A DNA stretch of 64,000 nt from a virus (taxonomy: Duplodnaviria > Heunggongvirae > Uroviricota > Caudoviricetes). The notes beneath the pieces were generated by a model. That model searched no databases. It saw only the letters and a program-made list of their open reading frames with translations, and had not been told where the DNA came from. A program made the translations under genes and the position numbers. Where the stretch lies: IMG/VR virus record IMGVR_UViG_3300045988_150638; one strand, 5' to 3'. This document shows, in pieces, positions 27,891 to 28,586 of this stretch (its first letter is position 1; every line of letters starts with the position of its first letter).

Positions 27891-27998
27891 TTACTGTTTC
27901 CTGAGTGCTTCTATGACGCCAGCAATACCGCCTACAACTATGCCAGCAATGACAACGAGAACAATTGGATGCTTGTCAGCAAAATCCCAGAAGCCCAT
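27891..27998 (-). CDS. 35-aa membrane peptide (MGFWDFADKHPIVLVVIAGIVVGGIAGVIEALRKQ)
   Basis: Start overlaps the upstream stop (TGATG); one TM helix; not in ORF track. Confidence 0.35.
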   Translation of the reverse strand: MGFWDFADKHPIVLVVIAGIVVGGIAGVIEALRKQ

Positions 27999-28162
27999 CA
28001 CTGATCCTTAGAAGCTGTTTTTAATATCGGCCATACCAATGTTACAGCTACTGCTACCAACGCCCCGTCGGATAAAACCGACAGGATTGTGCTGGTGAAA
28101 TCCACCAGCACAGATAGCACGAGAAAAACCAAAGCCAGAATTAGACGTGCTTTTATAACCAT
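27998..28162 (-). CDS. 54-aa membrane peptide (MVIKARLILALVFLVLSVLVDFTSTILSVLSDGALVAVAVTLVWPILKTASKDQ)
   Basis: Start overlaps the stop of the TerB-like gene (TGATG) and stop overlaps the next start; two hydrophobic segments; not in ORF track. Confidence 0.4.
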   Translation of the reverse strand: MVIKARLILALVFLVLSVLVDFTSTILSVLSDGALVAVAVTLVWPILKTASKDQ

Positions 28163-28586
28163 CAGATATACTGTTCCAGTGGCAATTGAAGAGCCTGGGC
28201 AATTTTCTTCAATTGCTCCTGCTCTTCTGCCCCAATGCCATCCTGGTCAGCAATATCAATGCATAGGCACAGAACATCTACCGCATCATTAGTTCCAGAC
28301 ACGTCAGCCAGTTCACGTAAAGCCTGGGCATTCGCTCGGCGCGGCGAGGCTTCATATTGAGCGCGAATATTGGCGCTCATCTGGGCAATTTCACCGGAGA
28401 ACGGCGCAAAGGCAGGAAGTGCTGCAATGGTTTTTTCCAATACTGCAATTTCTTTCGCATCGCAGGTGCCGTCAGAGTATGCAATGGAATATGCGCCCAG
28501 ACAGTCGCTTCCACCGCATCACGGTTTTCCATCTTCTTGACTCCGCCAGCCGCTTTGCGGAATTTCTTTTTGAGAATGCCGAGCAT
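28162..28586 (-). pseudogene. TerB-like (tellurite-resistance-family, TciA-like) gene with an apparent frameshift near 28485..28500
   Basis: N-terminal frame MLGILKKKFRKAAGG... and C-terminal frame ...GAYSIAYSDGTCDAKEIAVLEK...DVLCLCIDIADQDGIGAEEQEQLKKIAQALQL each align with TerB but sit in different frames. Confidence 0.45.

Follow-up and report, generated by a model that had tools for sequence, protein, structure and literature searches.

The DNA analyzed here, a stretch of 64,000 nucleotides referred to in the following as the window, carries the tciA–tciB–tciC accessory operon of a P1-like (Punavirus) phage-plasmid, located inside the C1-repressed ban operon. Its tciA gene is a null or severely truncated allele, and we consider it quite likely that the gene has suffered an ordinary inactivating one-nucleotide deletion at a dispensable locus, rather than having been recoded. 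No uninterrupted 141-aa tciA frame is present in the window, which thus carries a disrupted allele of P1 tciABC (Punavirus accessory region 7).

The tci genes within a P1-like ban operon

A first-pass annotation, made from the window alone, had noted a resemblance to the P1 tci region and proposed a comparison with P1 tciA/B/C. The comparison showed that this is the P1 tci region itself: the 1.1 kb round the tci genes is 99.5% identical to phage P1 at the nucleotide level, and likewise to JL22 and other P1-like elements, with the genes in the same order. On a larger scale, a 24-kb segment (16000..40000) shares ~98% identity with P1 and with hundreds of P1-like plasmids, and most of the window aligns to co-linear blocks of P1 with 93–99% identity. 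The features follow each other as in P1, namely the C1 operator Obanab, tRNA-Asn, tRNA-Thr, upl/plp on the opposite strand, tciA, tciB, tciC, tRNA-Ile and ban. The Upl, Plp, TciB, TciC and Ban products are 98–100% identical to their P1 counterparts, TciB and TciC being 100% identical, while the two pieces of TciA are 97% and 99% identical. In P1 itself (NC_005856.1, 70233..70929; P1_gp074-076), tciA encodes a 141-aa protein of the TerB family and the tci genes sit between the tRNA-Asn/tRNA-Thr pair and tRNA-Ile/ban; they share with the window the TGATG overlaps, the tRNA-Ile(CAT) 3 nt downstream followed by ban, and the upstream tRNA-Asn, tRNA-Thr and Obanab.

All genes of the operon are on the minus strand. 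The upstream members, tRNA-Asn (29396..29471) and tRNA-Thr (29318..29393), were identified by ARAGORN/Rfam and P1 annotation. After the disrupted tciA come tciB (27998..28162), encoding an intact, hydrophobic protein of 54 aa, and tciC (27891..27998), encoding 35 aa from its ATG with one hydrophobic span, also intact. The start of tciB overlaps the stop of tciA, and the start of tciC overlaps the stop of tciB, in both cases as TGATG. These are the two hydrophobic peptides of 54 and 35 aa, chained by TGATG overlaps, that had been described in the first-pass annotation. An AAGGA Shine–Dalgarno-like motif lies 6 nt 5' of the tciC start; upstream of the tciB start there is only a weak GGA, 12 nt away. 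Past the tci genes, the operon ends with ban (26161..27525), encoding a DnaB-like helicase that is intact in one frame and 99.1% identical to P1 Ban over residues 1–454. The lesion in tciA leaves tciB, tciC, tRNA-Ile and ban untouched.

The tRNA with a CAT anticodon, the counterpart of P1 trnI and an ileX-like tRNA-Ile2, occupies 27812..27887 and begins 3 nt past the tciC stop (27891). The first-pass annotation had named it correctly as tRNA-Ile, with a spacer of 4 nt that was one nucleotide too long. ARAGORN called this tRNA as Met. The tRNA-Ile label stands because identical copies on E. coli plasmids in RefSeq are annotated as tRNA-Ile, and because the tRNA is 89.5% identical to a K-12 chromosomal tRNA-Ile copy. 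Within the 3-nt spacer, the window has a private substitution at 27890, where it carries G and 20 of 20 P1-like relatives carry T.

The bivalent C1 repressor operator (P1 Obanab/Op72ab) is found at 30127..30154, where two matches to ATTGCTCTAATAAATTT overlap, one of them perfect and the other with 2 mismatches. The window holds seven matches to this pattern, compared with 0.02 expected. According to the P1 annotation, Obanab overlaps the promoter of the ban operon, which in P1 also drives tciA, tciB and tciC. A scan of 27500..30400 for sigma-70 promoters found no consensus site, the promoters annotated in P1 being weaker matches than consensus. Downstream of the conserved bivalent operator, a terminator-like GC hairpin with a T-run (29945..29967, minus strand) is located at the end of the 'dicF-like' region of P1, and beside it the window has A7 where P1 has A6. 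At the Rfam gathering threshold, 27400..30400 yielded only the three tRNAs and no DicF match.

Between tRNA-Thr and tciA, the upl/plp region (28728..29093) contains an imperfect duplication of ~270 nt. A 25-nt repeat, GTAGATTGGGATATGA(A/C)CCCGTTAC, occurs at 28766 and 29045 with 96% identity, and a further repeat, of 24 nt, is found at 28728, at 28989 and, as a less similar third copy (67%), at 29222. The second copy of the duplication is bracketed by a 23-nt inverted repeat (28994..29016 and 29071..29093; 91% complementary). Both upl and plp are unproven ORFs that lie antisense within the tRNA operon, and the tRNA content of the operon differs among relatives. As to their origin, these repeats may be remnants of tRNA-flanking units or may form elements of a minus-strand RNA.

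Elsewhere, the window departs from P1 in several places. A ~6.5-kb block at 7706..14277 has almost no nucleotide match to P1 and has replaced a portion of the pmgT region; among the hypervariable regions published for P1-like plasmids, its counterpart is region 8 (PMC9603915). On the minus strand, this block encodes two Ead/Ea22-like proteins (10979..11599 and 11596..12297) and a DUF551 protein (9414..9992), together with several ORFs without a Pfam family, and an ORF at its edge (13745..14332, minus strand) is just 47% identical to P1 PmgT. Further differences in gene content are seen at 5983..6056, 45162..45856 and 31257..31442. The lxr gene is absent, ~70 nt standing in place of ~700 nt in P1; rlfA, rlfB and pmgF are absent or replaced; and the middle of Dmt (P1 residues 243–350) has been swapped for a divergent in-frame segment.

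The tciA lesion and its predicted products

The first-pass annotation had placed a switch between two tciA frames near 28485..28500. Alignment with P1, JL22 and phage vB_EcoM-673R5 confirmed the switch and located it at 28496..28498, where the minus strand reads GGG (plus strand CCC) and P1 and its relatives have GGGG. The window thus lacks one G of the run at tciA nt 89–92, at codons 30/31. A silent A>G change relative to P1 tciA is present at nt 405 as well. Replication slippage has probably removed the missing base.

Translation from the tciA start leaves the native frame after Trp30 and ends at codon 70, with TGA at 28379..28377. The resulting 5' ORF (28586..28377) is 69 aa long and consists of 30 native TciA residues, MLGILKKKFRKAAGGVKKMENRDAVEATVW, identical to the N-terminus of P1 TciA and located upstream of the TerB domain, followed by 39 out-of-frame residues. 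The remainder of the gene in its original frame (28162..28494) encodes residues 32–141 and the stop codon; this part includes GAYSIAYSDGTCDAKEIAVLEK and DIADQDGIGAEEQEQLKKIAQALQLPLEQYI, ends in QALQLPLEQYI, and its frame is 99% identical to P1 TciA residues 30–141.

Both parts had been described as TerB-like in the first-pass annotation, and this applies to the second of them. The 3' frame matched the Pfam TerB family (PF05099) with 26.4 bits, above the gathering score of 24.4, the match covering residues 11–117 of a 118-aa frame and positions 10–113 of the 118-position profile; intact P1 TciA scored 28.4 bits against the same gathering score. Two acidic D-G-x5-E motifs, SDGTCDAKE and QDGIGAEEQE, are found in the TerB domain of this frame. 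In contrast, the 69-aa ORF had no TerB match in Pfam. Since the TerB domain starts at the frameshift, the encoded 69-aa product has none of it.

The stop of the frameshifted ORF overlaps an in-frame ATG, that of TciA Met70 (28380..28378), as ATGA at 28377..28380, and a GGTGA motif lies 10 nt upstream of this ATG. In the intact gene, translation of tciB is probably coupled to that of tciA, given the TGATG overlap and the weakness of the GGA upstream of the tciB start. In the frameshifted allele, where ribosomes stop 215 nt before tciB, this coupling would be weakened, reinitiation at the ATGA overlap being the one way to preserve it. Termination–reinitiation at that point could yield a 72-aa C-terminal fragment of TciA and carry ribosomes on to tciB.

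Loss of function, recoding or sequencing error

The gene had previously been described as "disrupted or recoded". To these alternatives we brought related loci found in IMG/VR and in GTDB representative genomes; 93 of the 96 have a complete copy of the gene. In all 93, from P1-like elements and lambdoid prophages of many Enterobacterales, tciA is a single uninterrupted ORF of 140–145 aa with 66–100% protein identity. The two frames are therefore not separate genes in all relatives, an arrangement that had been raised earlier; tciA is one gene. Nor does the nucleotide sequence favor a programmed −1 frameshift of the dnaX or IS-element type. The 139-nt overlap between the frames (28518..28380) contains no X_XXY_YYZ slippery heptamer and no homopolymer longer than A6, and the sequence at the site of the shift, GUC UGG GCG, where a −1 shift would be needed to regain the native frame, is not slippery. 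A single relaxed site, G_AAA_AAA, occurs 60 nt 3' of the lesion (28437..28431), and intact tciA has it as well. With unsplit relatives, no slippery site and a plain one-nucleotide deletion in a G4 run as the cause, programmed frameshifting is unsupported, and we rejected it. Of the two earlier terms, "disrupted" was the accurate one.

We also considered whether the split might nevertheless be functional, either through a −1 frameshift that restores TciA or through the 69-aa ORF and an ATGA-coupled 72-aa ORF from Met70 acting as a selected pair that keeps tciB and tciC translated. The ATGA overlap with its upstream GGTGA would suit such a pair, and gene callers have annotated the 69-aa and 72-aa ORFs together in public contigs, where independent −1 deletions in the A5, G4 and A6 runs of tciA give the same layout. 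There is also a 74-aa PHROGs family, phrog_9865, that matches TciA residues 68–141. However, any −1 deletion before tciA nt 207 must end at the same TGA, so that the common layout is a matter of arithmetic and no evidence of selection. A shift at G_AAA_AAA, the one candidate in an overlap devoid of slippery heptamers, would still delete the first TerB motif. The 72-aa fragment keeps just one of the two acidic motifs and is unlikely to be functional, at most a few per cent of the copies observed are frameshifted, and the split is absent from all 93 complete relatives. Taken together, we regard a functional split as highly improbable.

A related proposal is that tciA is a mutational soft spot whose inactivation is favored in some hosts. 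Independent one-nucleotide deletions in the A5 run, in the G4 run, and in or next to the A6 run, three or four sites in all, lead to a 69-aa ORF with an ATGA stop, and reinitiation could keep tciB and tciC translated without a full TerB protein. We give this proposal very little credence; were it true, it would suggest that TciA carries a cost and that the small membrane proteins have a role that can be separated from it. Phase variation was rejected as well. Phase-variable homopolymer loci typically have a tract of 7 nt or more; the G3/G4 tract is too short for such a contingency locus, and its length is constant at 4 nt in the compared relatives, GGGG being found in all 21 exact matches from IMG/VR and in the best 120 plasmid and E. 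coli matches.

The loss-of-function reading, on which we settled, requires that the GGG allele be real. The rival view is that the true molecule has GGGG and an intact 141-aa tciA, and that the consensus dropped one G. A change of one nucleotide in the length of a homopolymer is a classic class of error, and the window comes from a metagenome scaffold: ENA ERZ28650427, VATT16-1_SAMN05827230_METAG-scaffold_18 (92,212 bp), matches 6.2 kb of the window at 100% identity and is evidently its source. Against this, the run is just 4 nt long, and the rest of the assembly does not appear to be error-prone. We tested 72 P1 CDSs and found 68 of them in the window; none of these has an internal stop, and no gene except tciA is divided between two frames. 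The aligned blocks contain eight isolated one-nucleotide indels relative to P1, and the seven other than the tciA deletion are intergenic (5943, 6901, 29806, 29944, 33439, 47702 and 49121). Random homopolymer errors would land mainly in coding DNA, which makes up most of P1, so this intergenic pattern indicates real differences that have been filtered by selection. An error-ridden assembly as a general explanation was therefore rejected, whole-window comparison with P1 at both the DNA and protein levels having revealed no other disrupted gene.

Indels inside ant1 and sit are compensated, and the frames are kept. They fall in short, highly divergent patches with several small cancelling indels (48247..48293 and 56402..56411) that have the look of mosaic recombination patches. 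In the 5.4 kb around tciA, the window has seven private substitutions when compared with 20 P1-like IMG/VR contigs.

The distribution of alleles bears on the same question from both sides. Exact-pattern scans found the GGGG allele on 21 IMG/VR contigs, while the GGG allele gave no matches in IMG/VR, GTDB representatives or JGI metagenome contigs. The best 60 of 314 plasmid matches and the best 60 of 401 E. coli matches all span 602 bases against the 601-base query, showing that each has one base more than the window. In a larger public collection, the intact 141-aa protein was found on at least 1000 contigs, the 72-aa C-terminal fragment on 29, a 69-aa form arising from the A6 run on 15, another 69-aa form, of the type seen in locus L127, on four, and the exact 69-aa product of the window on three in one look-up and seven in another. 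Frameshifted copies are thus a small minority, and the rarity of GGG, absent from three collection scans, would fit an error. The empty scans suggested a private, one-off allele, but an exact-protein match in a second, divergent assembly countered this: NCBI GCA_902849705.1 (CADHQB010000001.1) has the same deletion on a backbone with 98 differences from the window in ~6 kb (~98.3% identity) and another at tciA nt 9. The identical deletion on this second backbone argues against a one-off consensus error and for a genuine loss-of-function allele as the most likely origin, while a site-specific systematic error may also have given GGG on both backbones.

Other lesions have been recorded in the same gene. 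Phage vB_EcoM-673R5 (ON470615.2; L002) has an independent one-nucleotide deletion in the A5 run at tciA nt 16–20, and seven Logan contigs have a deletion in the A6 run at nt 151–156, with a nearby variant in L127 (among L126–L134). Like the window, these are P1-like elements with a one-base homopolymer deletion in tciA and intact tciB and tciC. In vB_EcoM-673R5, however, an annotated 123-aa ORF from Met19 keeps the whole TerB domain, whereas the lesion in the window is downstream of Met19 and the domain is lost from either start. In some of the A6-deletion Logan contigs (L128, L132 and L134), ban is fragmented too. These are visibly error-prone assemblies, and some of the frameshifts that recur in raw assemblies are therefore probably sequencing noise, which lends some weight to the view that the window's deletion is an artefact. 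On balance, we hold an artefact to be unlikely and the GGG allele to be probably real, a judgment drawn indirectly from assembly quality and allele recurrence.

Relationship to TerB systems and dispensability of tciABC

TciB belongs to DUF3927 (Pfam, 106 bits) and phrog_1470 and has two predicted membrane spans; TciC has no Pfam family and belongs to phrog_23152. None of the three proteins matched the PADLOC defence models at E ≤ 0.1, and NCBIfam has no model for TciA, TciB or TciC. A sequence search of the PDB with TciA found no significant relative, the best E-value being 0.14.

In passing the TerB gathering score, P1 TciA and the 3' frame of the window resemble the TerB proteins (PF05099) of ter clusters, which are associated with tellurite resistance, phage inhibition and colicin resistance. 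Unlike in those clusters, terZACDEF are missing here and the partners are two tiny membrane proteins, the DUF3927 protein and TciC; moreover, the function of TciA is given in the P1 record only as "by homology". The annotation of the tci module as a tellurite/colicin-resistance or cell-division-inhibition system is likewise by homology only. The most economical reading of the intact module would be that of a small membrane-associated TerB complex acting as a lysogenic-conversion "moron".

A further likeness is found in lambdoid prophages of Enterobacterales, in which an overlapping TerB–DUF3927 pair is widespread. Here, a 141-aa TerB protein with 84–87% identity to TciA is followed by an overlapping DUF3927 gene of ~50 aa. 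These pairs differ from the P1 module in that they have no tciC, which was seen in P1-like copies only, and in that all copies are intact. Locus L053, the one lambdoid locus that was read completely, has no tRNA/ban operon around the pair, which lies there between a DNA methylase gene and genes for small membrane proteins, a putative endolysin and a Bor-like lipoprotein, as identified from sequence only.

The tciABC system was already known, and what the window shows is a disrupted allele of a nonessential accessory gene. The papers found on tciABC deal with its nonessentiality and its variability only. In a CRISPRi knock-down study of P1, tciA, tciB, tciC, trnI and ban all scored as nonessential (PMC10695390). 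In a comparison of 77 P1-like phage-plasmids, tciABC was counted among eight hypervariable regions, and close to half of the subgroup-1 elements had lost it (PMC9603915). Since phages of this group can grow without tciABC and frequently lose it, the deletion in tciA would have been tolerated.

For annotation, tciA should be flagged as a pseudogene or frameshifted gene, and not as two hypothetical proteins or a recoded gene, and the CAT tRNA should be labeled tRNA-Ile. As one disrupted allele of a known accessory gene in a metagenome P1-like phage-plasmid, the finding matters little in itself; it is a further data point for the published weak selection on tciABC in P1-like plasmids.
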